A stretch of 64,000 bases of DNA, taken from the NCBI GenBank assembly GCA_035574235.1, contig DATLZA010000156.1, positions 17,998 through 81,997 on the forward strand, written 5' to 3'. The stretch comes from Planctomycetota bacterium. GTDB lineage: Bacteria; Planctomycetota; MHYJ01; JACPRB01. Below are positions 5,813-43,795 of this stretch, one piece after another; the stretch's first letter is position 1, and every line of letters starts with the position of its first letter. The notes beneath the pieces are model-generated. The model saw only the letters and a list, made by a program, of their open reading frames with translations. It did no database searches and was not told the origin of the DNA. Position numbers and translations under genes: made by a program.

Positions 5813-5888
5813 CGCTCCCCAACGGGGTTGCCGGCGGGACGTATTACCTCTGAACGGAGGCGATCGAACGGTTCCCGAGGGAGGCTTT

Positions 5889-26561: not shown

Positions 26562-27173
26562 ATGGCCGAGGAACAGTTCACGGGCGATCAGGTGAAGGAT
26601 CTTCGCCGCAAGGTCCCGGAGCCCTACAGCCTCGTGGCGGACTATCCGCCCAAGATCACGCGGCGGAGTTTTTTCATGTCGTGGGCGGGGGCGGCCTGGA
26701 CCGCCTTCGGCGCCGCGTCGGGCGTGGGGACGCTGGCGATGCTGCGGTACATGATGCCGAACGTTCTTTTCGAGCCGCCGCAGGTCTTCAAGGCAGGCAA
26801 GCCCGAGGACTACGAGTGGGACAAGCCGGATGAGCGCTTCAAGCAGGACAAGAAGACCTGGATCGTGAAGCTCTCGAAGGACTATAACGGCCGCCAGAAG
26901 GTGCTCGTGGCGCTGGACACCACCTGCACCCACCTGGGCTGCACGCCGAACGTGCTTTTCAGCGAAAGCAAGATCAAGTGCCCCTGCCACGGCTCGGGCT
27001 TCCGGTTCACGGGCATCAATTTCGAAGGGCCGGCGCCGCGTCCCCTGGAGCGGTACGCCGTTTCGATCGATCCGATCGACGGACAGATCGTCGTGGACAA
27101 GAACCGGAAGTTCCAGCAGGAAAAGGGGCAGTGGGAGGACAAGGCTTCCTTCATCGATCTTTCCACGGCATAG
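26562..27173 (+). CDS. Rieske [2Fe-2S] iron-sulfur subunit of a cytochrome bc-type complex
   Basis: Tat-type signal [12 protein letters not shown]. Rieske boxes CTHLGC and CPCHGS. Confidence 0.9.
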
Positions 27174-27177
27174 CGGC

Positions 27178-27972
27178 ATGGCGAAGAAGGGCGACGTCGG
27201 GCGAATCTGGGATTACATCGTCAACACGCAGGTGTGGCGCTCCATCATGCGCCACGGCTACCCGGACACCCCCCGGAACCGTTCGCTGGCGATCATGTCG
27301 AACGTGTTCCTGCATCTGCACCCCATCCGGCTGCGCAAGAGCGGCCTGCGGGTGCGGTACACGTGGTGCATGGGAGGGCTGACCTTTTTCCTCTTCCTCG
27401 TCGAGACGATCACCGGGCTGCTCCTGATGTTCTACTACCGCCCCACGGCGGAATACGCCTACCACGACATCGTGTACCTGCGGGCGGACGTGGCGCTGGG
27501 GACGATGCGCGAGATTCACCGGTGGGGCGCGCACGCGATGGTGATCACGATCTGGCTGCACATGATGCGTGTGTTTCTCACCGGCGCCTACAAGCCGCCC
27601 CGGGAGTTCAACTGGGGCGTGGGGGTGGTGCTTCTGGTGATCACGCTGCTGCTTTCGTTCACCGGATACCTCCTCCCGTGGGACCAGCTGGCCATGTGGG
27701 CGATTACGGTGGGGACGAACATGGCGCGGGCGACCCCGCTTCTGGGCCATGAGGGTCCGGGCGCCGCGCTCATCAAGGTCGGCGACATCGGCGTGGTGCA
27801 CATGGCCAGCGACGTCCGGTTCGGCCTTCTGGCCGGACGGTTCGTGGGACCGCCGGCGATCCTGCGGTTCTACGTGCTGCACTGCGTGGGGTTCCCGCTG
27901 ATCGCGGCGTTCTTGATCGCGGTTCACTTCTGGCGGGTGCGCAAGGACGGCGGCATCTCGGGCCCGCTGTAG
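27178..27972 (+). CDS. cytochrome b, N-terminal half (b6-like, split cytochrome b)
   Basis: Four heme-ligand histidines in two H-x13-H pairs ([17 protein letters not shown]; [19 protein letters not shown]). 264 aa. Confidence 0.9.
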
Positions 27973-28011
27973 GGCGGGCTTTTTTCGGGGGAGCCGAGGG
28001 GACGGCGAACG

Positions 28012-29142
28012 ATGCACGTGCTGGCGGCGGTGGCGGCGGGCGGCGGAGGAGGGGGATTCCTCCCCGAAGGGTTCAAGGACTGGCTCAACCACCTTTTCAA
28101 CCCCGTCGTCTATACCCTCCTGAGCATCGTGCTGTTCGTGCTCATGATGGTGGGCTATCGCGTCTGGACGCGCCCCAAGGTCGCCCTCGGGATCCTCATC
28201 GCCGTCGCCCTCTTCTTCGTGGTGGCCTTTCCGGACATGAACTTCCGGAAGATCGTCACGAAGCCCGACAACGTTCCCATCGTCGCGCTCATCTTCGTGC
28301 TGGGCTTCTTCACGTGGTGGGCGCTGCGCCAGGCCGCGATCAACGACGAGCGGATCGAAAAGGGCCTGCCGCCTCAGGAAGCCCTGGAATCCAACGACCG
28401 CGTCCTGAGCTGGCCCGACCTGGTCTACACGGAACTCATCTGCTCCGTGATCTTCACGGTCGTGCTCGTGCTGTGGGGCGTGTTCCTGGACGCCCCCCTC
28501 GAGGAGCCCGCCAACCCCGGAAAGACCCCGAACCCCTCGAAGGCGCCCTGGTACTTCCTGGGGCTTCAGGAAATGCTCGTCTACTTCGACCCCTGGATCG
28601 CGGGCGTGGTGCTGCCCACGATGATCATCACGGGGCTCATCATCATCCCCTACTGCGACCGGAATCCCAAGGGCGTGGGGTATTACACCCTCAAGGAACG
28701 CCCCTTCGCCGTCTGGACCTTCATGTTCGGCTTCCTCATCCTCTGGGTGTCCCTCATCATCATGGGCACGTTCCTGCGCGGGCCTAACTGGGAGTTTTTC
28801 GGTCCCTTCGAGGCGTGGGACGTCCACAAGGTGAGCCCGCTTTCGAACGTGAACCTGTCGGAGTATTTCTGGGTCAAGTGGCTCGGACAGCCTCTTCCCA
28901 ACAACATTTTCATGCGCGAGGCGCCGGGCTTCGTGCTGGTCCTGGGTTACCTGTTCGTTCTGCCGCCCGTTCTGGCCTTCACCGTGTTCCGGGGCCTTTA
29001 CCGGCAGATCGGATTCATCCGGTATAACCTCGTCATCCTCCACCTCCTCGTCATGGTGGGGATGGTCATCAAGATGGTTCTCCGCTGGACGGTGAACCTG
29101 AAATACGTCGTGTTCATCCCCGAGTGGTTCTTCAACATCTGA
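28012..29142 (+). CDS. cytochrome b C-terminal half (subunit IV-like) with extra transmembrane helices
   Basis: Qo-site region KAPWYFLGLQEML corresponds to the PEWY motif, here reading APWY. Multiple TM helices. Stop lies 1 nt before the next ORF. Confidence 0.8.
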   Translation: MHVLAAVAAGGGGGGFLPEGFKDWLNHLFNPVVYTLLSIVLFVLMMVGYRVWTRPKVALGILIAVALFFVVAFPDMNFRKIVTKPDNVPIVALIFVLGFFTWWALRQAAINDERIEKGLPPQEALESNDRVLSWPDLVYTELICSVIFTVVLVLWGVFLDAPLEEPANPGKTPNPSKAPWYFLGLQEMLVYFDPWIAGVVLPTMIITGLIIIPYCDRNPKGVGYYTLKERPFAVWTFMFGFLILWVSLIIMGTFLRGPNWEFFGPFEAWDVHKVSPLSNVNLSEYFWVKWLGQPLPNNIFMREAPGFVLVLGYLFVLPPVLAFTVFRGLYRQIGFIRYNLVILHLLVMVGMVIKMVLRWTVNLKYVVFIPEWFFNI

Positions 29143-29143
29143 T

Positions 29144-32100
29144 ATGGCCGACGCCGCCAAGCCCGACGCCCCCGTGAAGCACGAGCCCCCCAAGGAGCTC
29201 GAAGGGAAGGCCCAGGTCCAGAAGTTCATGGGCCGTCCCAAGAGAACTCCCGCGGACCAGGCGGAGTACTTCTACGACGTCAAGGTCACCCATATCGTCT
29301 TCTTCGCCGCTTCGCTCGGCCTGCTGGCGTCGTTCCTCCTCATGTTCCGCAAGGACCACGCCCGGCCCTGGAAGGAGTACCAGCGCCAGTTCGCCGAGAT
29401 GGATTTCGAGAAGCTCTGGTTCGAAATGAACGAGCTGCGCAAGGCGGAGGCGGCTCACGACCAGAAGAAGCGCGAGCTCGAACGCCAGATCGAGGCTTTC
29501 CTCAAGATCGTCCGCGGCCGCACGGTTCCGGTCACGCTTTTCGACCCTCAGGCCGCCGAGAAAGTCGCGCGGCTCAAGTCCGCGCCGACCGTCACGGTCC
29601 TCGTCGACGAGGAGAAAAAGAAGCTCCTTCTGGCCGAGCAGGAAAAGATCCGCGGGGAGCACTACGACAAGCAGCAGCTTTTCAACTTCGCCAAGGACGA
29701 GCTGGGGGCCGTCCGGTACCGCTTCGAGGAAGCGAGCCGCCATTACGAGGAGGCCCGGAAGTCCGGCGACGCCCGGCTTCCCGAGCACGAGCGCGCCTAT
29801 CTCGAGGCCAAGAAGGCCTGGGAGGCGGTGAACGCCAAGGTGGATCTCCGCAAACGCGAGTTCGACGAGGTGGACGCGCTGAAGACCTTCTACGAGGACT
29901 TCGTGACGGCCCTGGAGAGCCGCTCGGTGCCGGGACTCTGGGAGGGGCGCCCGTCCCTGGCGGAGCTGCAGAAAGAGATCGCCCTCATCACCCGCGACCT
30001 GGAAGACAAGCGCACGCGCTTCCAGAAGGAACGCCCCAGCTTCGCCAACCGGGTGCGCAACCTTCCCATGCTGGACTTCTTCGCCCCGCAGTACAAGGTC
30101 CAGCAGGTGATCCTCCCCGACCTCAAGGATCAGCTCAACTTCACGCGCGTCGACAAGGTGGACCGCTGCCATACCTGCCACGTGGGCATCGCCAATCCCG
30201 TCTACGAGGTGCGCATCCATCGTTCGGCGGAGAAGGAGGAGGACCGGTACGTTTTCAAGGATCCCTTCCTTCGGGAGTTCGTGGCCCACGCGCGGGGCCT
30301 CAGGGACGGCCGGCCCTTCGAGCCGAAGGACTGCAAGGTCTGCGACCCGGAAGGGCGCAAGAACGCGGAAATGGCCGCCCCGCTTACGCCCCACGGCTCC
30401 TGGGATTCGGACGACGCGATCCGGTTCACGAAAGCCTTCATGGCCCATCCGCGCCTGGACCTGTACGTGGCCGATTCCTCCCGCCACCCGATGCAGCGGT
30501 TCGGCTGCACGATCTGCCACGAGGGAGACGGACGGGACACGGACTTCACGCGCGTCGTTCACACGCCCGACGACCGCCAGGAAGCGGCCGCCTGGCGCCG
30601 CCGGCACGGCACTCCCTTCGGCGAGGAACGCTACAACTGGAACTACCGGGAGCTGTGGGATCTCCCGATGATCCCCTCGAAGTTCGTCCAGGCGTCGTGC
30701 CGGCGCTGCCACGTGGATGCCGTGGAGCTGGACGGGGCGGAGAAGTACGTGGCCGGCATGAAGCTCTTCGAGCGCGCCGGCTGCTACGGCTGCCACCGCA
30801 CGGACACCTACCAGGTTCTGGAAAAGGATCAGGCCAATCCTTCGCTGGATCCCAACCGCAAGGCGCGCCGTCCCGGGCCGCCGCTCACGCGGATCGACAC
30901 CAAGGTCACGCCGGAATGGGCCTGGAAGTGGCTCATGGGCCCCCGCGACTTCCGCCCCACCACCCGCATGCCGCATTTCTTCCTGCAGTCCAACGCGCGA
31001 AACTTCGTCACCGGGCTTGACGAGAAGGGGGAAGTCCGCAAGAAGCCCTACAAGCCCGAGGAGATCGACGGCACCCTCGCCTGGTCGATCCTGCGGTACA
31101 TCTGGAGCCTGTCGGAGACCCAAGAGGACGCCCCGCCTCCGGCTTCTCTCAAGGGCGATCCCAAACGCGGGGAGCTCATCGTCCGACAGGTGGGATGCAC
31201 CGCCTGCCACAAGGTCGAGGATACCCCCGAATCCGAATTCCGCGCCTGGACGGATCGGAGCCGGTACCTGGAGGAATTCGCTCCGGCGCTGGCGGGCGTG
31301 GGGAGCAAGATCAAGTCCAAAACCTGGCTGTACCACTGGGTGCGCAACCCCAAGAAGCACTTCCCGGATTCCGCGATGCCGAGCCTGCGCCTCACGGAAC
31401 AGGAAGCGCTGGACGTCGTGGAATACCTGATGACGCTCCGCAAGCCGGAATGGGAGCGCCGCCCCGGCCCGCCGCCGGTGCGGGAAGAGCTCGTCAATGA
31501 CCTCGTCTTCGAGCAGCTGCGCAAGGCGACCTCCGACGCCAACGCCCGCCGGTTGCTCCAGGGCGGGGATCCGGAGCTCAAGGACCTGGACGGCCGGGTG
31601 CGGTGGCTCGGGCGCAAGATGACGGCCAACTTCGGCTGCTACTCCTGCCACCGGCTGCCCCGCAAGGACGGAGAGCCGGACTGGCTCAACACCGAGGGCA
31701 TCGGCGTGGAGCTGACGGGAGCGCAACCGTTCGGTTCCAAGCATTACGACCGGCTGGACTTCGGCTTCACGATGGACGACGGGGTCAACCATCACGGCGT
31801 CACGTTCAAGCACGGAGTGACCGGTCAGGAGATCACCGCCCGCGTCCACGAAACCCGCCAGGACTGGCTGGAGTGGAAGCTGCGCAATCCCCGGATCTTC
31901 GACGGCGGCAAAATGGAGTCGAAGCCCTGGGACGAGCTTCTGCGGATGCCCCACTTCGGCCTGACCGACTATGAGATCGAGCTGCTTCAGACGTTCGTCC
32001 TGTCCTTCACGGACCATCGGGTCGCCGGGCTGGTGGCGTCGGCGGAGAAGCGGTTTTCCCCCGACGAGAAGGCGCTCAACCGCGGAGAGCGCCTTGTGCG

Positions 32101-33202
32101 GGACAACAACTGCCGGGCCTGCCACCGGATGTCCCTCGATCGCTTCGAGACGGAGTGGACGCGATTGGACCCGGCTCAGAAGAAGGTCGTGACCACCTGG
32201 GAGTGGGTCGAAGGGCGCAACCTCGGGCGCGCGGGGGCGGACAACGCCGAGGCGATCCTCCGGCGCTGGGGGCTGATCTCCGGCGACGTCAAAAAGGAGC
32301 AGCTCGCCCGGTACGAGGTTTACTCGATCGACTGGGCGTCCGATCATCGCACGCTCCGGATCCCGGGCGTCGTGGCCGGGGGCAACAAGTTCGTGGCCTT
32401 CGACGGGGACGATTGGTGGTACCTCGACACGGACGAAAAAGGCCAGCCCCTCAAGCGGCCGATTCGCCGGAGGATCCCCCAGGACGGAGGGGACATCCTG
32501 CCCAAGATCGCCGCCTTCAAGAAGAAGCTCGCCGACGAATCGGACGAGGACATCGGCGACATGAGCGACCCCGGGCAGCTCGAGGCGCGCTATCCTCCGA
32601 TGCTGCGGACCCAGGGCGTCAAGACCCAGGCCGACTGGCTCTACCGCTTCCTCAAGAATCCCTGGCCGATCCGGCCGAACATTTTCCCGGTGGCGCCGGG
32701 CGCCAGGACGATGCCGGATCTCAACATTCGGATGCCCACGTTCGGACTGTCCGACGAGGAGGCGGCGTCGCTTGTGCGGTGGTTCGCCGTCCGGGACCAT
32801 CTGCCGGGGGTGGATGTCTACCCCTACACGAATTTCCCGGAGCGGGACCCGGCCCTTCTGGCCGCCCGCCGGGAGATCCACGAGAAGGTTCTTCGCGGCG
32901 TGATTCTGGACCGCGAAAAGGGGTGCGCAAGCTGCCACTGGGTGGCCGGCCAGGCGCCGCCCGGCGACCCCTTCAAGCACGCGCCGGATCTGGCCCATGT
33001 GGAGGAACGGCTCCGCCCCCGGTGGCTCTACCCGTGGGTGGCCGTCCCGGCTTCGATCTATCCGCGCACGACGATGACGTCCTTCTGGTCGAACCCGCAG
33101 GATCCGAAACAGGCCGACGAGATCCGGGCGGCCGTGGAGGCGCTGTTGAACTTCCGGAAACTGACCTCCGCGAAGGGCGCGGAGACGCAGGAGAAGAAAT
33201 AA
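29144..33202 (+). CDS. membrane-anchored poly-cytochrome c (8 CxxCH; tandem class I cytochrome c domains) with long N-terminal coiled coil
   Basis: Eight heme motifs: CHTCH, CTICH, CRRCH, CYGCH, CTACH, CYSCH, CRACH, CASCH. At least four are followed by class-I Met-ligand signatures (TRMPHFFL, SAMPSLRLTEQEALDVVEYL, LRMPHFGLTDYEIELLQTF, IRMPTFGLSDEEAASLVRWF). N-terminal TM IVFFAASLGLLASFLLMF, then ~250 aa of heptad-like charged sequence. Confidence 0.85.
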   Translation: MADAAKPDAPVKHEPPKELEGKAQVQKFMGRPKRTPADQAEYFYDVKVTHIVFFAASLGLLASFLLMFRKDHARPWKEYQRQFAEMDFEKLWFEMNELRKAEAAHDQKKRELERQIEAFLKIVRGRTVPVTLFDPQAAEKVARLKSAPTVTVLVDEEKKKLLLAEQEKIRGEHYDKQQLFNFAKDELGAVRYRFEEASRHYEEARKSGDARLPEHERAYLEAKKAWEAVNAKVDLRKREFDEVDALKTFYEDFVTALESRSVPGLWEGRPSLAELQKEIALITRDLEDKRTRFQKERPSFANRVRNLPMLDFFAPQYKVQQVILPDLKDQLNFTRVDKVDRCHTCHVGIANPVYEVRIHRSAEKEEDRYVFKDPFLREFVAHARGLRDGRPFEPKDCKVCDPEGRKNAEMAAPLTPHGSWDSDDAIRFTKAFMAHPRLDLYVADSSRHPMQRFGCTICHEGDGRDTDFTRVVHTPDDRQEAAAWRRRHGTPFGEERYNWNYRELWDLPMIPSKFVQASCRRCHVDAVELDGAEKYVAGMKLFERAGCYGCHRTDTYQVLEKDQANPSLDPNRKARRPGPPLTRIDTKVTPEWAWKWLMGPRDFRPTTRMPHFFLQSNARNFVTGLDEKGEVRKKPYKPEEIDGTLAWSILRYIWSLSETQEDAPPPASLKGDPKRGELIVRQVGCTACHKVEDTPESEFRAWTDRSRYLEEFAPALAGVGSKIKSKTWLYHWVRNPKKHFPDSAMPSLRLTEQEALDVVEYLMTLRKPEWERRPGPPPVREELVNDLVFEQLRKATSDANARRLLQGGDPELKDLDGRVRWLGRKMTANFGCYSCHRLPRKDGEPDWLNTEGIGVELTGAQPFGSKHYDRLDFGFTMDDGVNHHGVTFKHGVTGQEITARVHETRQDWLEWKLRNPRIFDGGKMESKPWDELLRMPHFGLTDYEIELLQTFVLSFTDHRVAGLVASAEKRFSPDEKALNRGERLVRDNNCRACHRMSLDRFETEWTRLDPAQKKVVTTWEWVEGRNLGRAGADNAEAILRRWGLISGDVKKEQLARYEVYSIDWASDHRTLRIPGVVAGGNKFVAFDGDDWWYLDTDEKGQPLKRPIRRRIPQDGGDILPKIAAFKKKLADESDEDIGDMSDPGQLEARYPPMLRTQGVKTQADWLYRFLKNPWPIRPNIFPVAPGARTMPDLNIRMPTFGLSDEEAASLVRWFAVRDHLPGVDVYPYTNFPERDPALLAARREIHEKVLRGVILDREKGCASCHWVAGQAPPGDPFKHAPDLAHVEERLRPRWLYPWVAVPASIYPRTTMTSFWSNPQDPKQADEIRAAVEALLNFRKLTSAKGAETQEKK

Positions 33203-33226: not shown

Positions 33227-33964
33227 ATGCGTACGCTTGCGATGATGGCGGCCGTCGCGGTCGCGCTGGGCGCGTCCGGCGACCGGCGGGCGTCGGCCGG
33301 GACCGGCGGCACGACGGCCCAGGACGGCTTCGCGGTCACGGGCAACGTCAAGATCAAGGGCGACATCCCCAAGCGGAAGAAGATCCGCATGGACGCGGAT
33401 CCGAAGTGCGCCGCGCTCCACGCGGAGCCTCCGTTGACGGAGGAGGTCGTGGCCGACGCCCAGGGCAACGTCCAGTGGGCGTTCGTCTACGTGAAGAAGG
33501 GGCTCGAGGGCAAGAAGTTCGAAGCGCCCAAGACCCCGGTCGTGATCGACCAGAAAGGGTGCCAGTATCACCCGCACGTTCTGGGAATCATGGTCGGACA
33601 GGATCTTCTGATCCGCAACAGCGACGATCTGCTCCACAACATCCATGCGCTGCCCTTCAACAACCGAGAGTTCAACTTCGGGCAGCCGCAGAAGGGGATG
33701 GAGGAGAAGAAGCAGTTCACCACGCCCGAAATCATGGTCAAGGTGAAGTGCGACATTCATCCGTGGATGAGCGCCTGGGTCGGGGTTCTCGAGCACCCCT
33801 TCCACGCGGTTACGGGTCCCGACGGCAACTTCAAGATCGAAGGCCTGCCCGCCGGCAAGTACACGATCGAAGTCTGGCACGAGAAGTACAAGGCGGTTTC
33901 CCAGGAGGTCGAAGTCAAGGCCGCCACGACCGTCAACTTCGAGCTGACGGAGAAGAAGGAGTAA
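33227..33964 (+). CDS. secreted cupredoxin (amicyanin/plastocyanin-like type-1 Cu site) fused to a CarboxypepD_reg-like beta-sandwich
   Basis: Signal peptide MRTLAMMAAVAVALGASG. The segment VGQDLLIRNSDDLLHNIH…KVKCDIHPWMSAW matches amicyanin VGDTVTWINREAMPHNVH…YHCTPHPFMRGKV (Cu ligands H, C-x2-H-x2-M). C-terminal VTGPDGNFKIEGLPAGKYTIEVWHEKY resembles a carboxypeptidase-regulatory domain. Confidence 0.75.
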   Translation: MRTLAMMAAVAVALGASGDRRASAGTGGTTAQDGFAVTGNVKIKGDIPKRKKIRMDADPKCAALHAEPPLTEEVVADAQGNVQWAFVYVKKGLEGKKFEAPKTPVVIDQKGCQYHPHVLGIMVGQDLLIRNSDDLLHNIHALPFNNREFNFGQPQKGMEEKKQFTTPEIMVKVKCDIHPWMSAWVGVLEHPFHAVTGPDGNFKIEGLPAGKYTIEVWHEKYKAVSQEVEVKAATTVNFELTEKKE

Positions 33965-33989
33965 GCGTTCCCTCTTCGGACGGAATTCG

Positions 33990-34030
33990 CGAAGCCCCGG
34001 GCGGAGGTCGCCCGGGGCTTCTTTTTATTC
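33990..34030 (+). terminator. rho-independent terminator after cupredoxin A
   Basis: Hairpin gaagccccgggcg / cgcccggggcttc followed by TTTTTATT. Confidence 0.5.
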
Positions 34031-34166
34031 CTCTTGCGGCGCGGAAAATTGAAGCGGGACAGAATGTCCCAATCCGATCCCGATTCCGGCGCGCCGGTCG
34101 AAGTTCCGCCCGTCAGGCGTGGGCGGCATGCCGTTTGCTTGGGGTCACGGGAAACAGGAGGGCGCG

Positions 34167-34961
34167 ATGAAACGACTTGCGGCGACCCTGATGAGTGTTT
34201 TTGTTCTGGGGTGCGGCCGGTCCGAGACGCCCGGTGGATCGGGGGCCGCTTCCCCTTCGCCGGCCCCCGCTCCGGGCGCGGCCGAGTCCCGGCCGGCGCC
34301 GCCTTCGGGCGACGCCCCGAAGGGCACGGCGTCGATCCGGGGCGTCGTGCGCGTGACGGGCACGCCGGCACGCGGCAAGGCGCGGCCCAGCGACGACTGC
34401 GCGGCGCTTCACGCCGGGCCGATTCTCCTGGACGATATCGTCGCCGACGCGCAGGGTCGCCTGCAATGGGCGTTCGTCTACGTCCGGAAAGGTCTCGAGG
34501 GACGCCGTTATCCGCCGCCGGCCGCGCCGGTGGTCATCGATCAGCGCGGCTGCCGGTACGAACCTCACGTGGTCGGGCTCGTCGCCGGCCAGCGGCTGAA
34601 GGTCACCAACAGCGACGATCTCCTGCACAACGTGCACGGACTTCCGTTCGCCAACCGCGAATGGAACTGGGGTCAGCCGCGCAAGGGGACGGAAAACGAA
34701 ATCACGCTTCAGGTGCCGGAGGTCATGATCCGGATGAAATGCGACATCCATCCCTGGATGAGCGCGTGGATCGGCGTGCTGGAGCACCCCTTCTTCGCGG
34801 TCACGGGTCCCGACGGGAGCTTCGCGATCGAAGGGCTGCCCGACGGCCGGTACGTCCTGGAAGTCTGGCACGAGGCGTTCGAGCCGGTCCTGAGGGACGT
34901 GGAACTCAAGGGCGGAGAATCGCGGGTCGAGGAGTTCGTGCTGGAGAAAAGGAAGCAATAG
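34167..34961 (+). CDS. lipoprotein paralog of the cupredoxin-CarboxypepD_reg fusion
   Basis: RBS aggagg precedes the ATG. Lipobox-like MSVFVLGCG. The same ligand set is present: DLLHNVH…KCDIHPWMSAW. ~55% identity by eye to the 33227 product over the core. Confidence 0.75.
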   Translation: MKRLAATLMSVFVLGCGRSETPGGSGAASPSPAPAPGAAESRPAPPSGDAPKGTASIRGVVRVTGTPARGKARPSDDCAALHAGPILLDDIVADAQGRLQWAFVYVRKGLEGRRYPPPAAPVVIDQRGCRYEPHVVGLVAGQRLKVTNSDDLLHNVHGLPFANREWNWGQPRKGTENEITLQVPEVMIRMKCDIHPWMSAWIGVLEHPFFAVTGPDGSFAIEGLPDGRYVLEVWHEAFEPVLRDVELKGGESRVEEFVLEKRKQ

Positions 34962-34995
34962 ATCCGCCGCGGCGGATGCCTATAATGGCGCACGC

Positions 34996-36018
34996 ATGAA
35001 GGAAAAGGCGCTCTGGGCGCTCTTCGTCGTCCTGGCCGCCTGCGCGGTGGCGGCCGTTCTGGGGCTGTGGTTGCGCCGGGCGGCGCGCGACCGCGCGCCG
35101 GAGTTCGCGCTCGTGGACGCGCAAGGGCGGCCGGTGACGCGGCGCGACCTTCTCGGCGAAGTCTGGGTGGCGGACTTCGTCTTCACCCGCTGCCGGCTCA
35201 CCTGTCCCGCCATGACGTCCGCGATGGCGACGCTGGCCGAGCGCGTGCCGGGGGCTCGGTACGTGTCCTTCACCGTCGATCCGTCGCACGACACTCCCGA
35301 GCATCTGGCCCGGTGGACCGCGACGATGGGCGTGGCCCGCGAGGGATGGCTTTGGCTCTCGGGGGCGTCGGAGGAGGAGATGGGGCGGATCGCGCGGGGC
35401 TTTCTCCTTCCGACGGGACGGGCCCCGGAAACCGACTCCCGCATGGCGATCCTGCACAGCGAGAAGTTCGTCCTCGTGGACCGCTATGGGCGGATCCGCG
35501 GCTGGTACTCGGTGGTGGACGGGCTTTCGCTGCGGAGGGACGAGGCGGCGCTGGCGCGGCTGGAGCAGGATCTGCGGCGCCTGCTGGGGGAGCGCCGGCT
35601 GCCCGTCCAGAAGCTGCCGGCGGTGAACGCCGGATTCAACGCCGTCAGCACGCTTCTGCTCATATCCGGATTCGTCTTCATCCGGAAGAAGCGTGTCGGA
35701 GCGCACCGGGCCTGCATGGTGGGGGCATTGGCGGCTTCGGCGCTCTTTCTGGCCGGGTATCTGGCGGCGCACTACTATCTGGGTTCGACGCCGTATCCGC
35801 GACGGGATTGGACGCGGCCGCTGTATTTCGCCGTTCTGGCGAGTCACTCGGTTCTGGCGGCGTTCATTCTGCCCCTGGCCGGGATCACCCTCTACCGGGC
35901 GTTTCGGGGCGACTTCGAGCGTCACCGGGGGATCGCCCGCTGGACGCTTCCCTTGTGGTTGTACGTCTCGGTGACGGGGGTGGCGATCTACGGGATGCTC
36001 TACGGCGTCGGCGGATAG
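34996..36018 (+). CDS. SCO1/SenC copper chaperone (CxxxCP thioredoxin fold) fused to a DUF420-like polytopic membrane domain
   Basis: N-terminal TM, FVFTRCRLTCPAMTS (CxxxC) with a downstream His (DPSHDTPEH). C-terminal four TM helices with conserved His (LASHSVLAAF). TATAAT 9 nt upstream of the ATG (leaderless-type spacing). Confidence 0.8.
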   Translation: MKEKALWALFVVLAACAVAAVLGLWLRRAARDRAPEFALVDAQGRPVTRRDLLGEVWVADFVFTRCRLTCPAMTSAMATLAERVPGARYVSFTVDPSHDTPEHLARWTATMGVAREGWLWLSGASEEEMGRIARGFLLPTGRAPETDSRMAILHSEKFVLVDRYGRIRGWYSVVDGLSLRRDEAALARLEQDLRRLLGERRLPVQKLPAVNAGFNAVSTLLLISGFVFIRKKRVGAHRACMVGALAASALFLAGYLAAHYYLGSTPYPRRDWTRPLYFAVLASHSVLAAFILPLAGITLYRAFRGDFERHRGIARWTLPLWLYVSVTGVAIYGMLYGVGG

Positions 36019-38580: not shown

Positions 38581-38694
38581 AGGCGCCGACCCCTGCGGGC
38601 GGTGTCGGGGGGCCCCGGATAGGAGGGGAGGTTAGGGGTTCCGCCTCCGCGGCGGAGCCGCCGGCCCTGTTCTTGGGCCAGGGAAGTTCCTTCG

Positions 38695-38733
38695 GGCGTC
38701 TCTTCCGGGCGACCGGGAGAGACGCCTTTTTTT
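38695..38733 (+). terminator. second hairpin + T7 tract downstream of groEL
   Basis: Hairpin ggcgtctcttccgg-gcga-ccgggagagacgcc followed by TTTTTTT. Confidence 0.45.
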
Positions 38734-38746
38734 CGCTCCGGGACGC

Positions 38747-39352
38747 TCAGCGCGCCGGGGGAGGGGACGTCTCGCCCTTGGGCGCCGCGGGGCTCAGCGG
38801 CTCCGCGGGGGGAGGCGCCTCGGGTCCGCCGAACTCCGGCGGCACCTTCTGCTTGAAACGCTCCTCGAAGATCTGGAACGGCTTCTCGTCGTAGAGCACG
38901 AACATCACTTCCTCGAGCCCCGACGCCCCCGAGCCGCAGTGGCGGAGCGTCTCTTCGATCAGGATGTCCGCGCAGCGCTCGACGGGCAGCGCCCCCGCCC
39001 CCGTGCCGATGGCGGGGAAGGCGATCGTGCGGCACCGAAGCTCGTCCGCCTTCTGAAGCGCCGCGCGCGCGGCGTGGCGCACCGACTTGGCGTCCGCCCA
39101 GAGGCCCAGCGGATTCACCGCCGCGTGGATGATCCACTTGGCTTTGAGTTGTCCCGCCGAGGTGACGGCCGCCGTCCCGAGCGGAATCGTTCCGATCCGG
39201 TGGCACTCCTCCTGCACCTCCGGACCGGCGGCTCGGCGGATGGCTCCCGAAACGCCTCCTCCGAGCACCAGGTCGTTATTGGCCGAGTTGACGATGGCGT
39301 CGGCTTCGACCTGCGTGATGTCGCCTCGGATCATGCGGAGCCGGGTTTTCAT
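38747..39352 (-). CDS. Macro-domain protein (ADP-ribose/O-acetyl-ADP-ribose binding/deacetylase family)
   Basis: IRGDITQVEADAIVNSANNDLVLGGGVSGAIRRAAG…IAFPAIGTGAGALP. 201 aa. Confidence 0.85.
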   Translation of the reverse strand: MKTRLRMIRGDITQVEADAIVNSANNDLVLGGGVSGAIRRAAGPEVQEECHRIGTIPLGTAAVTSAGQLKAKWIIHAAVNPLGLWADAKSVRHAARAALQKADELRCRTIAFPAIGTGAGALPVERCADILIEETLRHCGSGASGLEEVMFVLYDEKPFQIFEERFKQKVPPEFGGPEAPPPAEPLSPAAPKGETSPPPAR

Positions 39353-39412
39353 GGGCGCGCCTGAGCTTTCGCATTATAGGAGGGAGCGCGCGGGCCGTAA
39401 AGGGGGGCGCCG

Positions 39413-40246
39413 TCACGGTCCGCCGAATCGGCGGCGGCACCAGGCGCGCGCGAGGACCAGGTTGAGCCCCATGAGCGCCAGGAATCCGCCCAGCCCGAGC
39501 GCCTTGCGGCGCGCAAACTCCGCCTTCCGCCGCTCCGCCCGGTCGAACGTCTCGCGGGCGGTCCGGGCGGCGGCCGGGATCTCCTCCTCCAGCTTCTTGA
39601 AGACGGAAAAGAGCCCCGCGTGCTGCCGGGAACGGAACTCCCCGCGCGCGCGCCGGGCGGCCTCGAGCGCCGCGCGCTCCGCCGCCCAGGAGATTCCCGG
39701 TTCCTCCTCCGCCAGGCAGGCTTCCAGCCGCGCCAGCTCCGGTTCGAAGGCGGCCATCTGCTCCCCGAATTTCGTCATGGCGGCGATCTGCCGCGAGGCC
39801 GGCCGATGACACTCGGCGCACCCTTGTTCCTTGCTCCTGAGGATTTCCTCCCGCCGCGCCGGGGCCGTCCGGTGCTCGGTGTGGCAGGCCAGGCAGCCCC
39901 GGACCTTTCCGCCTCCCTCCCAGTCGGCATAGTGCTGGCTGCGCTTGAATTCCTCGAGTTCCTGGATATGGCACGTCCCGCACAGGGCGGGCGAATCGCT
40001 GCGGGGGCGGCCGGCCTCGTCGAGCTCCTTAAGGACGCCGCGGCGGAAGCCCTGGACGTAGAGGTGCGGACGCGACTTTCGGGTGTCGATCTGGTCGGCG
40101 CCGTGGCACCCGACGCAGTCGGTTCCTTTGAGCGCGTGAACGGAATCCTTCCAGTGGTCGCGCTGCTCCTCGTGGCATTCCGCGCACCGGCGAGCGTCGG
40201 CCACCCTCTCCTGCGCCGCCAGGAACGCCAGCAGCGCCGCGATCAT
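39413..40246 (-). CDS. pentaheme c-type cytochrome with C-terminal membrane anchor
   Basis: Signal peptide MIAALLAFLAAQ. Five CxxCH motifs: CAECH, CVGCH, CGTCH, CLACH, CAECH. C-terminal TM LGLGGFLALMGLNLVLA. The ATG overlaps the cytochrome b stop (ATGA). The upstream 93 codons of the track ORF are rejected. Confidence 0.8.
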   Translation of the reverse strand: MIAALLAFLAAQERVADARRCAECHEEQRDHWKDSVHALKGTDCVGCHGADQIDTRKSRPHLYVQGFRRGVLKELDEAGRPRSDSPALCGTCHIQELEEFKRSQHYADWEGGGKVRGCLACHTEHRTAPARREEILRSKEQGCAECHRPASRQIAAMTKFGEQMAAFEPELARLEACLAEEEPGISWAAERAALEAARRARGEFRSRQHAGLFSVFKKLEEEIPAAARTARETFDRAERRKAEFARRKALGLGGFLALMGLNLVLARAWCRRRFGGP

Positions 40247-41379
40247 CGGCCGCCCTCCGCCGCGCGGTGCGGCACGCCCCGGATGTCGAACTCCCAGGGT
40301 CCGATCCGCCGCTCGGAAAGGAACCCGAGGATTCCGAGCGCGAGCGTCGCCGCCAGACCCGCCGCGGCGGCCGCCATCAGGAACCGCCGCCGCCCGGGCC
40401 GGCGCTCGGGATTGCGGTCGAGAAACGGCAGGAGAAAAAGAAGCGCCACCGCTCCGTTGACCACGAGAAGCCCCGCGAGCTTCGGGAAATACTTGAGCGC
40501 CTGGTAGACGGGCAGGAAATACCACTCGGGCTTGACTCCCCTGGGCGTGGACTGCGGGGTGGCCTTGGGCCCCAGCTCGAACGGGAAAAGCACCGCCAGC
40601 GTCACCACCAGGCTCAGGACCACGATGACCGTGGTCACCTCGCGGTAGAGATGCCGCGCGAAGGGAACGCCCTCCCGGGCCATGATCCCCTCATATCCCT
40701 CGCCGATCTCCTCCCTGACGCTGCGGCGCGTGCTGATGCCCAGGCGGCGCACCAGGTAGAGATGGCCCGCCACGAGCCCGACGAGAGCGGCCGGGAGGAG
40801 AAGCACGTGCACGATGAAGAAACGCGACAGGGTTGCGTCCGAAACCCGGGAGCCTCCGCGGATCATCTGTCCCAGGGTATCCCCCACGAGGGGCAGTCCC
40901 ATGAACGACTCCGTGGCCACCACGGTGCCCCAGTAGGAAACCTGGTCCATGGGCAGGAGGTACCCCGTGAACCCGAACGTGACCGTGACGAGAAGAAGCG
41001 CGCACCCGAAAAGCCACGTCAGCTCGCGCGGCTTCTTGTACGCCCCGTACCAGAAAACCCGCCCGAGGTGAAGGAGCACCACGAAGACCATCGTGTGGGC
41101 CCCCCAGGCGTGGAAGGAACGGATGAGCCAGCCGCCGGGAATCTCATGCGTGATCCGGCGCACGCTCTCGTACGCCCTGTCCATCGAGCTCGAGTAGTTG
41201 AGGGCCAGGAGGATGCCGCTTCCGACCTGCGTCATGAAGAGCACGAGCGCCGCCGTGCCCAGCGTGAAGGCGTAGCTCTCCGCGTGCGGCGGAACCGGCT
41301 TGTAGAGCTGCTCCCGGCCGAAGCGGGCGAACGACGAAAGCCCCAGCCGTTCCTCCAGCCACGTCCGCAGGCGACCCAT
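40243..41379 (-). CDS. cytochrome b (full-length, unsplit)
   Basis: Both H-x13-H pairs are present (AWGAHTMVFVVLLHLG; IVHVLLLPAALVGLVAGHLY). Canonical Qo motif PEWYFLP. Start at MGRLRTW (41379), 2 nt after the Rieske stop. Confidence 0.9.
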   Translation of the reverse strand: MGRLRTWLEERLGLSSFARFGREQLYKPVPPHAESYAFTLGTAALVLFMTQVGSGILLALNYSSSMDRAYESVRRITHEIPGGWLIRSFHAWGAHTMVFVVLLHLGRVFWYGAYKKPRELTWLFGCALLLVTVTFGFTGYLLPMDQVSYWGTVVATESFMGLPLVGDTLGQMIRGGSRVSDATLSRFFIVHVLLLPAALVGLVAGHLYLVRRLGISTRRSVREEIGEGYEGIMAREGVPFARHLYREVTTVIVVLSLVVTLAVLFPFELGPKATPQSTPRGVKPEWYFLPVYQALKYFPKLAGLLVVNGAVALLFLLPFLDRNPERRPGRRRFLMAAAAAGLAATLALGILGFLSERRIGPWEFDIRGVPHRAAEGGR

Positions 41380-41381
41380 GT

Positions 41382-41855
41382 TCAGAAGACCACGACCAGA
41401 CGACCCTTCTCCGAGCGCACCGGGAACGCCTGAAGCTCCCGCGCCGCCGGTGTCGTCGGTCCGGTCCCGTCCGGACGGAAGGTGGCGCTGTGGCAGGGGC
41501 ACCGGATCAGGCCGCTCTTCTCATCCCACTTCACCAGACACGCCAGGTGCGTGCAGGTGGCATTGACCGCGGTAAGTTTGCCTCCCGCGCGGATGATGAG
41601 CAGGGGGATCGCGCCTTTCTCGATCGCCTTGAAGCCGCCTTCGGGGATGTCGTCCGGCCCCACGTCGACGGGCCCCGAGAGGCGCGCTTCGGGGAGGGGA
41701 GCCAGATAGCGGGCCACCGGCACGGCGCTCAGGGCGCAGGTTGCGCACGCGGAGAGAGCGCACGCCGCGCCCAGGAAGTCCCGGCGGCTCGTTCCCGGCT
41801 GCTCGTCGCGTTCCACCGTCCGATCCTTAGTAGCCCCGCGCCGGACGCGCGTCAA
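41382..41855 (-). CDS. Rieske [2Fe-2S] protein
   Basis: Tat signal RRDFLGAACALSA. Rieske boxes CTHLAC and CPCHSA. 157 aa. Confidence 0.9.
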   Translation of the reverse strand: MTRVRRGATKDRTVERDEQPGTSRRDFLGAACALSACATCALSAVPVARYLAPLPEARLSGPVDVGPDDIPEGGFKAIEKGAIPLLIIRAGGKLTAVNATCTHLACLVKWDEKSGLIRCPCHSATFRPDGTGPTTPAARELQAFPVRSEKGRLVVVF

Positions 41856-42697
41856 GGAATTCCACGCCCGGAGCTCTTTCTTTCCTTACCCAGAAACGCC
41901 CGCGGCAGGTACGCCAGGAGGTCCGTCGCCATCAGGGAAACTTCGCCGAGATCCCGCGCCCCCAGATCCCCCGCCCGGCCGTGCACCTCGACGCCCAGGC
42001 AGGCGGCCTCGAAGGGCTCGATCTTCTGGCCCAGAAGCGCTCCGAGAACCCCCGCCAGGACGTCTCCCGATCCTCCCGTCGCCATTCCGGGGTTCCCGGT
42101 CCGGTTCCGGAAGAGCCGCCGGCCGTCCGTCACGAGCGTTCCGTGCCCTTTGAGGACGGCGATCCCGCCAAGGCGGCGCGCCAGCTCACGCGCGGTTCCC
42201 TCCCGGTCCGCCTGGACGTCCCCGGCGGTGCGCCCCAGGAGGCGGGCCGCCTCGCCCGGATGCGGCGTGAGGATCCGCGGCGCGCGGGCGCGGGCCAGAA
42301 GTTCCGCGCGGCCCTCGAAGGCGTTCAGGCCGTCGGCGTCGAGAACGAAGGGGATCTCGAGCCGCGCGACGAGTTCCCGGACCAGGCGGACGGCGGCGGG
42401 ATCGCGCGAGAGCCCCGGGCCGATCACCGCCGCCGTGCTCCGAGCCGCCTCGGCCAGGACCCGGCGGGCCGCCGCCCGCGGAGGAAAGGGCCGCACAATG
42501 CCGCAGGTGTGCTTGATCGAAAGAATGTCGGCCACCCGCTCGGGGCAGGCCAGGACGACGAGTCCCGCGCCCGCCCGGTAGGCCGCTTCCGCCGCAAGAT
42601 AGGCCGCCCCCGTCATGCCCGGAGAGCCGGCCACGACGAGCACCGTGCCGTAATCTCCCTTGTGCGTCTCGGGACGGCGCGGAGGCAGGCCGGGCAT
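41852..42697 (-). CDS. ADP-dependent NAD(P)H-hydrate dehydratase (YjeF C-terminal / carbohydrate kinase fold)
   Basis: HKGDYGTVLVVAGSPGMTGAAYLAAEAAYRAGAGLV…TPHPGEAARL…GSGDVLAGVLGALL. Its 3' end overlaps the Rieske start by 4 nt. Confidence 0.85.
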   Translation of the reverse strand: MPGLPPRRPETHKGDYGTVLVVAGSPGMTGAAYLAAEAAYRAGAGLVVLACPERVADILSIKHTCGIVRPFPPRAAARRVLAEAARSTAAVIGPGLSRDPAAVRLVRELVARLEIPFVLDADGLNAFEGRAELLARARAPRILTPHPGEAARLLGRTAGDVQADREGTARELARRLGGIAVLKGHGTLVTDGRRLFRNRTGNPGMATGGSGDVLAGVLGALLGQKIEPFEAACLGVEVHGRAGDLGARDLGEVSLMATDLLAYLPRAFLGKERKSSGRGIP

Positions 42698-42817
42698 GGG
42701 CGGGATTGTAACAGCGCCCCGCGCGGCGGGGAAGGAAACGCGCGGCGATTCGATGCTCCGAGCGGCCCGCCCGGCGTATTATTTAGCGGAAGCGGGATCC
42801 ACCGGGGAGGCCGTCGC

Positions 42818-43795
42818 ATGAGATTCGCCCTCTGGGGGCTGGCCCTTCTGGCGTCCGGGACGTTCCAGGAGGACATGGTCAAGAAAGTGGCGCCCGACGC
42901 CGAGCGCGTGCGCAAGGTCGCCCGCAAGCCGGCGCCCGGGGCGCGCGAGAAGATCGAAAAGGCGCTCGGCGAGCGGCTCGCCGAAGCCGACCTTTCCGCC
43001 CCGCTTTTCGAGTGCTATGCGACCGTTCCGTCCGTTTCGAGCATGGAAAAGACCCGCGTCGTGGTCGGCGTGTTCTCCGGCCGGGGCCCCAAGGGGCCGT
43101 TCCGCGTGGCGGTGGCGGTGGCCCCGGGCGAGGATACGATCCACGCGGTGCGCGTGCTCGAGAACGCCGACGAAAAGGCGCTCGAGTCGAACGCGTTCCT
43201 GGCCCAGTTCCAGGGGTTCGAGTACACCCCGAACATCTACAACCCGCCTCAGAGCCTTGCGGCGGCGCTTCAGAAAGCCAAGGGGGCCGATGAAGCGGCG
43301 CGCGAACTGGACGCGCTCGTGCGGATCAGCCTGCAGATGCGCGCGGTGGGGCCGGCGTGGGATCGGCTCCTGGAGAAAATCGACAAGAAGGACGCCGCCG
43401 CGGAGGAGGATCTTGCGTTCCTCGAACGGGCGTTCGACGAGGCGCTCAAGCTCGTTCCGGCGGCGCGCTTTCTCAAGCCCACCCAGCAGGAGCGCTTCCG
43501 CCAGTACGCCTCGGGGGCGCGCGCGGATGTCCAGGAGTTGCGGCGATTCCTGAAGGAAGGGAACTTCGAGGAGGCCTACCGTAAGTCGGGGGAGGTCGAT
43601 TCTCAGCGTTGCGCCAAGTGCCATGGCGCGTACCGGCGCAGTTTCCGCGAGGCGCGATCGGATCGCGGTCTCGGAAACGGCTACCTTTCGACCCGCCTGG
43701 AGGTCGCCGTGCCGGATGCCCGGCATGAAGCCTCGTTTCAGGCGCTGGCTCAGACCGTCCGCAAGGCGGTGCTCCTGATCGAGGAGACGAAGTAG
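42818..43795 (+). CDS. secreted protein with FMN_bind-like domain and C-terminal monoheme CxxCH
   Basis: RBS ggggagg precedes the ATG. Signal peptide MRFALWGLALLASG. Segment GVFSGRGPKGPFRVAVAVAPGEDTIHAVRVLENADEKALESNAFLAQFQGF resembles the FMN_bind domain consensus (…VgiD.dG.I.gV.VL.H.ET.G.G…FL.QF.GK). C-terminal QRCAKCHGAY. Confidence 0.55.
   Translation: MRFALWGLALLASGTFQEDMVKKVAPDAERVRKVARKPAPGAREKIEKALGERLAEADLSAPLFECYATVPSVSSMEKTRVVVGVFSGRGPKGPFRVAVAVAPGEDTIHAVRVLENADEKALESNAFLAQFQGFEYTPNIYNPPQSLAAALQKAKGADEAARELDALVRISLQMRAVGPAWDRLLEKIDKKDAAAEEDLAFLERAFDEALKLVPAARFLKPTQQERFRQYASGARADVQELRRFLKEGNFEEAYRKSGEVDSQRCAKCHGAYRRSFREARSDRGLGNGYLSTRLEVAVPDARHEASFQALAQTVRKAVLLIEETK

Follow-up and report, generated by a model that had tools for sequence, protein, structure and literature searches.

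Complexes of a Rieske protein and a cytochrome b with multiheme c-type cytochromes are known from Deltaproteobacteria (the tetraheme type), Geobacter (GSU2930-2937) and the anammox planctomycete Kuenenia (Kustd1480-85 and Kuste4569-74) (PMC2825233, PMC12954380, PMC5317091). We analysed a 64,000-nt stretch of a Planctomycetota contig (hereafter, the window), in which, as in these systems, the genes for a Rieske protein and a cytochrome b lie together with that for a multiheme cytochrome c, and not for a monoheme c1 or f. Contigs nearly identical to this stretch are present in samples SRR7882662, JGI 3300039489 and ERZ23499828. A first-pass annotation of the window had described four closely joined minus-strand genes, those of a second Rieske/cytochrome b complex and of an NAD(P)HX dehydratase. 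Domain matches and coordinates bear this out: each of the four, nnrD, the Rieske gene, the cytochrome b gene and c5, is real (Table 1), and the first Rieske/cytochrome b cluster lies in the same window, in line with the several such complexes per genome of anammox Kuenenia. The reading we hold to be probable is that positions 39413-41816 encode a three-subunit, multiheme-type quinol:cytochrome c oxidoreductase, with nnrD a housekeeping neighbour expressed from its own promoter.

Table 1. Features of the locus and of its surroundings in the window.
Feature	Position	Strand	Description
First Rieske/cytochrome b cluster	26562-33202		Rieske, split cytochrome b6, SUIV-like protein, 1352-aa protein with eight CxxCH
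Macro-domain gene	38747-39352	-	O-acetyl-ADP-ribose deacetylase-like; PF01661 3e-32; downstream of c5
TTTACG-17-TATAAT	39401-39373	-	Promoter-like site of the macro-domain gene; 10/12
c5	39413-40246	-	Pentaheme c-type cytochrome; 277 aa
Cytochrome b	40243-41379	-	Fused b6-like N-terminal and subunit IV-like parts; 378 aa
Rieske [2Fe-2S] subunit	41382-41816	-	144 aa; start GTG 41816
TTGACG-N17-TACTAA	41827-41855	-	Motif upstream of the Rieske gene
nnrD	41852-42697	-	Stand-alone ADP-dependent NAD(P)HX dehydratase, YjeF C-terminal type; 281 aa
TACAAT	42705-42710	-	-10-like hexamer 7 nt before the nnrD ATG; no Shine-Dalgarno sequence
orf325	42818-43795	+	Secreted monoheme protein with predicted b562/c'-like bundle; divergent from nnrD

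The Rieske protein was recognised in domain searches (PF00355, 1.1e-12) and carries both cluster boxes, CTHLAC and CPCHSATF, in the CxH...CxxH pattern. Its N terminus combines a membrane anchor with a twin-arginine motif, SRRDFL, and the TAT export signal scores 21.7 bits against a cutoff of 16.7 (TIGR01409). Cytochrome b matches PF00033 (3e-49) and PF00032 (1.4e-16) within one protein, and has what is expected of a bc-type subunit, namely two histidine pairs for hemes bL and bH (H90/H104 and H191/H206) and a PEWY-type Qo motif (residues 284-287). Among 23 cytochrome b homologues, H90, H104, H206, P284 and W286 are invariant, and H191, E285 and Y287 are conserved in at least 90%.

The complex shares with cytochrome bc1 the long fused cytochrome b, the PEWY motif, the disulfide cysteines of the Rieske protein and a C-terminally anchored c subunit; the best match of cytochrome b among solved structures, 8smr_I (5e-57), is a bc1-type chain. 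It differs from bc1 in the second histidine pair, which has the b6 spacing H-x14-H, in Rieske box II, which is CPCHGSxY in bc1 Rieske proteins, and in the c subunit, which has five hemes and is unrelated to c1. As in b6f and Firmicutes-type bc complexes, the N-terminal half of cytochrome b is b6-like (NF002990, 197 bits) and the C-terminal half subunit IV-like. Unlike in those complexes, however, the halves are fused into one ORF, and the cysteine of the CxGG heme cn motif (PMC5600118) is missing: cytochrome b has neither an N-terminal Cys nor a heme cn site, its single Cys being at position 126. In the window's first complex the halves are separate and CMGG is present. Fusion and the absence of the heme cn motif also set the 378-aa cytochrome b apart from that of the anammox complexes, which is split into b6 and SUIV. 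In addition, unlike the anammox complexes, the locus encodes neither an NAD(P) oxidoreductase nor an HAO-like subunit; no gene for an FeS-, FAD- or NAD(P)-binding subunit was found at 38.7-43.8 kb or in the gene tables of relatives.

The c subunit distinguishes the locus from the known multiheme complexes: it is a 277-aa pentaheme cytochrome that has a helical stalk and is anchored at its C terminus. Its five CxxCH motifs (C21AECH, C44VGCH, C89GTCH, C118LACH and C143AECH), which had been listed exactly in the first-pass annotation, are all invariant in the family, and the C-terminal helix proposed there is confirmed as a single hydrophobic one centred on residue 257. Behind a short hydrophobic leader at the N terminus, the protein (AlphaFold model pLDDT 92.9) has its five-heme core at residues ~15-150, followed by three long helices that make up the stalk and by the transmembrane anchor. 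Five further histidines are conserved (H37, H61, H105, H125 and H209, the last in a Q208-H209 pair), which fits five bis-His hemes; that c5 is of the low-potential type is plausible. c5 seems to stand in for cytochrome c1/f: as expected of the c subunit of a bc-type complex, it is membrane-anchored, and its gene overlaps that of cytochrome b by 4 nt. Together with the domain searches and the conserved gene order described below, this overlap backs the assignment of a C-terminally anchored pentaheme c to the second complex.

The junctions within the complex are close. In the window, a 2-nt spacer separates the Rieske stop codon from the ATG of cytochrome b, and cytochrome b and c5 overlap in an ATGA. 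Both had been correctly read in the first pass, and both are kept in relatives: the Rieske/cytochrome b gap ranges from -4 to +4 nt, and the 4-nt cytochrome b/c5 overlap is found in the window and in loci L085, L087-L090, L005, L007 and L093. A word-index protein search with c5 returned 5 hits and its repeat with a family profile missed most of the 270-aa family, so an exhaustive HMMER search was used instead. In the 80 reference-genome loci (L005-L084, 1.1 Mb), c5 homologues adjoin cytochrome b or Rieske in about 70. A full-length five-heme homologue lies directly downstream of cytochrome b at about 25 loci of Planctomycetota, Gemmatimonadota and Latescibacterota, and a nine-heme version directly upstream of Rieske at about 45 loci of Verrucomicrobiota, Omnitrophota and Phycisphaerae (c5-family HMM). 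Judged by gene order, a Rieske/cytochrome b complex with a pentaheme c is an arrangement common to several bacterial phyla; our literature searches returned nothing specific on a pentaheme Rieske/cytochrome b subunit. A by-product of the analysis is the clear definition of a widespread, unstudied family of cytochrome c subunits, with five hemes if encoded downstream of cytochrome b and nine if upstream of Rieske. Its members share the helical stalk and the anchor at the C terminus, and the PDB holds no significant match to the family. Together with its partner, a b562-like protein that recurs with it in this planctomycete lineage, the family could help in annotating the menaquinol-oxidising bc complexes of Planctomycetota, Verrucomicrobiota, Gemmatimonadota, Latescibacterota and Omnitrophota and in studying their structures.

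That partner is likely the product of orf325. Its N-terminal domain is beta-rich, and residues ~157-282 are predicted to fold as a four-helix bundle like that of cytochrome b562/c', with one heme motif, C265AKCH269, and an invariant M174. Weak matches to PF01322 were found in 8 of 9 family members, all below the cutoff (best E 0.0033); a profile search of solved structures gave b562 and c' as top matches, and Foldseek aligned the partial model to b562/BRIL (TM 0.46-0.56, normalised to target). The single-sequence model is poor outside the bundle (pLDDT 54 overall, 68-91 for helices 157-282). A reading of the N-terminal domain by eye as FMN_bind-like was dropped, since it gave no Pfam match even at E<=1. 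In L091 and L092, orf325 overlaps c5 as a c5-orf325 pair, and in L007 it follows c5; the linkage occurs in three different arrangements. Since orf325 is encoded next to c5 in three relatives, it, and not nnrD, is the recurring partner of the complex, and its product is likely a periplasmic redox partner of c5.

The first-pass annotation had extended translational coupling to nnrD, reading an ATGA overlap with the Rieske gene. This junction, however, reads TTGA and requires TTG 41855, the first codon of the longest ORF, as the Rieske start. In the gene calls on every contig fetched, from the species and its relatives, the Rieske gene starts at GTG 41816 or its equivalent, which lies 35 nt downstream of nnrD and is preceded by AAGGA; such a conserved alternative start had been named beforehand as the finding that would speak against coupling. 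Furthermore, L087 differs by a 2-nt indel that shifts the TTG out of the Rieske frame (TTG to GTG 41 nt, as against 39 nt in the window), and the gap between nnrD and Rieske, 35-152 nt overall, is 53-152 nt in L088-L092. Tight coupling, therefore, appears to cover three genes, not four, and the conserved unit is the Rieske-cytochrome b-c5 trio.

A TTGACG encloses both the TGA that ends nnrD and the spurious TTG start, and TTGAC[GC] is kept at a distance of 39-44 nt before the Rieske start codon in the window, L085, L087, L089, L090 and L092. The TTGACG-N17-TACTAA of the window may be an internal promoter with a non-canonical -10 part; the promoter scanner made no call on it, the second hexamer being without T at position 6. 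TTGACG was also considered as half of an FNR/CRP-type palindrome and was rejected, as the other half is not kept in relatives. A transcript starting from the putative internal promoter would have hardly any leader in which to carry the AAGGA ribosome-binding site.

The identity of nnrD is clear: PF01256 matches at 2e-58 over positions 1-242 of its 242, and TIGR00196, the NAD(P)HX dehydratase model, scores 219.4 bits against a cutoff of 129.85. Upstream of the gene, TA[CAG]AAT is kept 7 nt before the start codon in 7 of 8 lineages and at 9 nt in L090; in L088 a scan flags TTCACA-18-TAGAAT (10/12) at the same -10 position. We infer that nnrD has its own conserved promoter of the leaderless type. 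It adjoins the Rieske gene only in one uncultured Planctomycetota clade (the window/L001-4 and L085-L092; cytochrome b identity 64-100%), and none of the 80 reference loci has an nnrD homologue (1.1 Mb, E<=1). The operon conservation that the earlier annotation wanted checked is thus split: the Rieske-cytochrome b-c5 order is kept across phyla, and the nnrD adjacency within a single clade.

Could nnrD nevertheless belong to the operon, with one transcript running from its own promoter through the genes of the complex and with a functional tie to them, either through upkeep of the NAD(P)H pool while this branch is expressed or through an NAD(P)H-handling complex as proposed for anammox? Because nnrD and Rieske share a strand, are 35 nt apart and have no terminator between them in the window according to a terminator scan, co-transcription with the complex in the source organism is possible. 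In addition, the adjacency has outlasted local rearrangements in eight lineages, with cytochrome b identity down to 64%, including relocation of c5 and insertions of STAS and asparaginase genes, and this could reflect selection; NAD(P) oxidoreductase subunits do occur in the Rieske/cytochrome b complexes of anammox Planctomycetes (PMC12954380). The present cluster, however, lacks any NAD(P)-binding or FeS oxidoreductase subunit, and nnrD is not translationally coupled to it. In L089 the gap contains a hairpin resembling a terminator, and in L088 one of -81 kcal/mol. The trio stands without nnrD in L005, L007 and L093, and L005 nests within the nnrD-linked clade in a distance tree. Since the whole region from murC-murG-ftsW to groEL is syntenic throughout the nnrD-linked relatives, descent alone can explain the adjacency. 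We found no evidence of a functional link between nnrD and the complex, and literature searches returned nothing specific linking nnrD to respiration. Operon membership is, thus, unlikely, and the unusual operon partner of the first-pass annotation is better described as a neighbour that was probably retained through descent and has a predicted promoter to itself than as a core part of the complex. We regard as very improbable the joint claim that nnrD is co-transcribed and kept adjacent by selection and, separately, that the pair of c5 (five- or nine-heme) and orf325 is an uncharacterised replacement of c1 in at least five phyla, with no solved homologue. Were nnrD both co-transcribed and selected, this would hint that this branch of planctomycete Rieske/cytochrome b complexes has to do with NAD(P)H chemistry, a link already proposed for those of anammox.

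Two other readings concern what the complex does with its electrons. A protein 95% identical to c5 (P0001) is named 'formate-dependent nitrite reductase cytochrome c552 subunit' by JGI, and the best sequence and fold matches of c5, though weak, are NrfA, HAO and MccA, with which it shares the layout of long helices after a compact multiheme core; c5 might, accordingly, be a catalytic, NrfA-like nitrite reductase and the cluster a quinol:nitrite reductase. To this we give almost no credence. Unlike those enzymes, c5 has no CxxCK or other catalytic heme signature, all five motifs being CxxCH and five extra conserved histidines being available for five hemes, and it is about 60% of their length (277 aa as against 441-473 aa for the matched NrfA chains). 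None of the matches is significant (E 0.02-1, TM about 0.25; Foldseek of the c5 model against the PDB, best E 0.96, TM 0.27), and c5 does not match Cytochrom_C552 (PF02335). Alternatively, the complex could be the inner-membrane entry to extracellular or low-potential electron transfer (to metal, selenite or an electrode), like the Geobacter cluster, rather than a branch to a soluble acceptor. The top NCBIfam score of cytochrome b is indeed to ExtP of the Geobacter selenite/tellurite operon, a Rieske/cytochrome b pair in Geobacter is clustered with 2-, 5-, 10- and 12-heme cytochromes (PMC2825233), and bis-His multihemes are typical of such chains. The ExtP score, however, is 203 bits, far under the family cutoff of 290, and the surroundings of the locus, in the window as in close relatives, contain neither porin-cytochrome nor outer-membrane multiheme genes, which makes this reading decidedly unlikely.

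In the favoured three-subunit oxidoreductase, a quinol, probably menaquinol, would be oxidised at the PEWY Qo site, as family knowledge suggests. The first electron would pass to the TAT-exported Rieske cluster and on to the five probably bis-His hemes of c5, which its C-terminal helix would keep on the periplasmic face, where cytochromes c1 and f are likewise held by a C-terminal helix. The second electron would cross the membrane via bL and bH to the Qi site, the Q cycle building proton-motive force. From c5 electrons would probably move to the orf325 protein and then to a terminal enzyme. nnrD, an NAD(P)H repair gene, would have been placed between orf325 and Rieske in the ancestor of one Planctomycetota clade; its transcript may read through into the genes of the complex, which would be neither translationally coupled to it nor dependent on it.

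On the other side of the complex, the macro-domain gene downstream of c5 has its own promoter-like site (Table 1), and in L088-L090 and L092 an asparaginase gene sits between it and the complex. The macro-domain gene is predicted to be a separate unit.

The window is about 69% G+C, and four minus-strand ORFs with a strong third-position G+C bias lie between 39.4 and 42.7 kb: nnrD, the Rieske gene, the cytochrome b gene and c5, encoding a pentaheme cytochrome c (see the table). The first-pass annotation had described them as four genes joined by gaps or overlaps of 2-4 nt, with nnrD translationally coupled to the respiratory complex. Reading the bases directly bore this out at two junctions: 2 nt separate the Rieske stop codon from the cytochrome b ATG, and cytochrome b and c5 overlap by ATGA. 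The supposed ATGA between nnrD and Rieske, however, reads TTGA, and the genes overlap only if TTG 41855, the start of the longest ORF, is taken as the Rieske start. Gene calls instead place this start at GTG 41816 or its equivalent in all four near-identical contigs and in eight out of eight more distant relatives, and AAGGA lies 8-12 nt 5′ of the GTG; a downstream start with a good ribosome-binding site is what the annotation itself had named as evidence against the overlap. In the metagenomic relative L087, the TTG is out of frame, because it lies 41 nt rather than 39 nt from the GTG; the stretch between them thus tolerates a frame-breaking indel. In relatives L088 to L092 the distances from the nnrD stop to the Rieske start are 152, 85, 55, 87 and 53 nt, respectively. 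Because of the conserved GTG, the AAGGA, the indel and these gaps, the nnrD/Rieske junction does not hold: the tight coupling involves three genes, not four.

Features of the locus and of the first Rieske/cytochrome b cluster of the window
Feature	Coordinates	Strand	Description
nnrD	41852-42697	-	Stand-alone NAD(P)HX dehydratase; PF01256 2e-58, whole profile; TIGR00196 219 bits (cutoff 130)
Rieske	41382-41816	-	ORF next after nnrD; twin-arginine signal (domain searches)
Cytochrome b	40243-41379	-	378 aa; b6-like and subunit-IV-like halves fused (domain searches)
c5	39413-40246	-	c-type cytochrome, 277 aa, five CxxCH (domain searches)
Promoter-like site	39373-39401		TTTACG-17-TATAAT; macro-domain gene's own
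Macro-domain gene	38747-39352	-	O-acetyl-ADP-ribose deacetylase-like; 3′ of c5
Terminator-like hairpin	38694-38727	+	Strong, 15 bp, probably bidirectional; between groEL (end 38516) and the convergent macro-domain gene
orf325	42818-43795	+	325 aa, signal peptide, one CxxCH at 265-269 (CAKCH); divergent from nnrD
First cluster: Rieske	within 26562-33202	+	203 aa
First cluster: split cytochrome b6	within 26562-33202	+	264 aa; CMGG at residue 64, heme cn motif
First cluster: subunit IV-like protein	within 26562-33202	+	376 aa
First cluster: multiheme protein	within 26562-33202	+	1352 aa; eight CxxCH; class I cytochrome c and FixO-like domains

The survey was anchored on cytochrome b (1197 homologues at E≤1e-20), and we compared 80 loci from species-representative genomes and nine from metagenomic relatives. 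The Rieske gene lies directly 5′ of cytochrome b in virtually all of them. The c5 family was searched for with an HMM trained on 33 full-length members. In about 25 of the 80 loci (Planctomycetota, Gemmatimonadota and Latescibacterota) it detects, directly 3′ of cytochrome b, a five-heme homologue that matches the profile from end to end, helical stalk and anchor included; in about 45 (Verrucomicrobiota, Omnitrophota and Phycisphaerae) it detects, directly 5′ of Rieske, a nine-heme form, 420-480 aa long, whose N-terminal four-heme part is duplicated. For this clade of cytochrome b, c5 is thus the cognate c subunit. The 4-nt cytochrome b/c5 overlap recurs in L005, L007, L085, L087-L090 and L093. 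Since Rieske and cytochrome b are adjacent and c5 stands beside them across phyla, the functional unit is therefore Rieske-cytochrome b-c5, and it is widespread.

The nine-heme loci (paralogue or orthologue) comprise L010, L012, L013, L043-L048 and about 35 more, many of which also have 11- and 19-heme proteins close by. In L006 a macro-domain gene lies directly 3′ of cytochrome b.

nnrD, searched for by tblastn and with an HMM from eight orthologues, was not found in the 80 reference loci (1.1 Mb), even at E≤1. It precedes Rieske only in one uncultured Planctomycetota group (the window, its near-identical contigs L001-L004, and L085-L092; cytochrome b identity 64-100%), where the whole murC-murG-ftsW to groEL region is syntenic. 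In a cytochrome b distance tree the nnrD-linked loci form one clade, inside which nests the reference locus L005, with the three genes behind PSCyt/DUF1501 genes and without nnrD. L007, outside the clade, has the order Rieske-cytb-c5-orf325-ResB, and L093 has argG-Rieske-cytb-c. Of eight lineages (the window, L085 and L087-L092), seven carry TA[CAG]AAT (42705-42710 on the minus strand of the window) at a distance of exactly 7 nt 5′ of the nnrD start codon, with no ribosome-binding site, and a promoter scanner independently flags TTCACA-18-TAGAAT at the same position in L088; judged by sequence, nnrD mRNA looks leaderless in this clade. Between nnrD and Rieske, L089 has a 13-bp terminator-like hairpin and L088 a hairpin of −81 kcal/mol (7412-7555; z = −7.5), made of repeated GGCGTYAGGCG-like units, which may be a REP-like element; no unusual structure was found in this spacer in the window, L090, L091 or L092. 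TTGAC[GC], within which the nnrD stop codon of the window falls, is kept in six lineages 39-44 nt 5′ of the Rieske start; a spacer of 17-18 nt separates it from TA[CG][AT]A[AG] further 3′. An internal promoter here is a weak possibility, because the −10 element is non-canonical and almost no leader would be left. Co-transcription of nnrD with the three genes in this organism is possible. Translational coupling, in contrast, is refuted by the out-of-frame TTG and the 53-152-nt gaps, and with it falls the reason for calling the operon unusual, a metabolite-repair enzyme coupled to a respiratory complex; a functional link of nnrD is likewise without support. What stands of the first-pass annotation is the genes, two junctions and a second complex with a pentaheme c. 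Both neighbours of the respiratory operon, nnrD and the macro-domain gene, are housekeeping genes that deal with NAD-derived metabolites, an arrangement that seems coincidental.

The CxxCH motifs of c5 are exactly the five reported earlier (CAECH, CVGCH, CGTCH, CLACH, CAECH), and its C-terminal membrane anchor was likewise recovered as a single hydrophobic helix centred on residue 257. All five motifs, H37, H105 and Q208-H209 are invariant in the 33-member alignment, and conservation of H61 and H125 is 90% or more. Five extra histidines for five hemes fit all-bis-His ligation, a pattern that would favour, by sequence alone, the earlier guess of a low-potential type. The AlphaFold model, a confident one (pLDDT 92.9, pTM 0.83), has a compact heme core, three long helices and a C-terminal helix ending in the anchor. 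Neither the sequence nor the fold search of the PDB gave a significant match for c5; NrfA was the top sequence match (E 0.024), and HAO, MccA and NrfA were the top fold matches (E 0.24-1, TM 0.2-0.27). A protein 95% identical to c5 is labelled as a nitrite reductase of the NrfA type in one source. The label is not supported, as c5 has no CxxCK and no PF02335 match, and is 277 aa long against 441-473 residues in the matched NrfA chains.

Both His pairs are preserved in cytochrome b (H90/H104, and H191/H206 with the 14-residue spacing of b6), as is PEWY, whereas an N-terminal Cys that could bind heme cn is missing. In the Rieske protein the disulfide cysteines are retained, and the second box is CPCHSATF. 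In bc1 complexes, as known from their sequences and from yeast mutants, a Ser and a Tyr raise the Rieske cluster potential; CPCHSATF presumably lacks both, which would suit a menaquinol oxidiser. The complex is most likely a Q-cycle quinol:cytochrome c oxidoreductase, in whose predicted high-potential chain electrons would pass from Rieske through the five hemes of c5 to orf325 and onward to a terminal enzyme.

orf325 matches no Pfam family above threshold. Sub-threshold matches to PF01322 (cytochrome c′) occur in eight of nine orthologues, cytochromes b562 and c′ come first in a profile search of the PDB, and in a model predicted from the single sequence, the confidently modelled helices 157-282 form a four-helix bundle matched by Foldseek to b562/BRIL. 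Met174 is invariant and could be the sixth heme ligand. The c5 gene has moved within the clade: it is 3′ of cytochrome b in the window and L085-L090, and absent from that place in L091 and L092, where c5 (5795-6604 and 5756-6616, respectively, both minus) is followed by orf325 with a 4-nt overlap, divergent from nnrD-Rieske-cytb on the opposite strand. In L007 orf325 comes directly after cytb-c5. The two genes are linked in three different ways, which suggests that orf325 is a redox partner of c5, a partnership better supported than that of nnrD.

The complex was correctly called the second of the window, as another Rieske/cytochrome b cluster is encoded on the plus strand. Behind this first cluster, at 33227-36018, come two proteins with a CarboxypepD_reg domain and a fusion of SCO1 with DUF420, which suggests a tie to a copper oxidase.

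Rieske/cytochrome b cores with multiheme c subunits are already known, and the present complex adds one more. Deltaproteobacteria have tetraheme subunits, and the Geobacter GSU2930-2937 cluster has 2-, 5-, 10- and 12-heme proteins (PMC2825233); in Caldithrix, a Rieske/cytochrome b pair within the nap cluster was proposed to feed multihemes (PMC5317091). Complexes of anammox planctomycetes contain hexa- and octaheme subunits and NAD(P) oxidoreductases (PMC12954380; also PMC5600118), whereas here cytochrome b is fused and without the cn motif, the pentaheme subunit is distinct, and there is no NAD(P) oxidoreductase. The c5/orf325 pair, for which no characterisation was found in the literature searched, is not rare.
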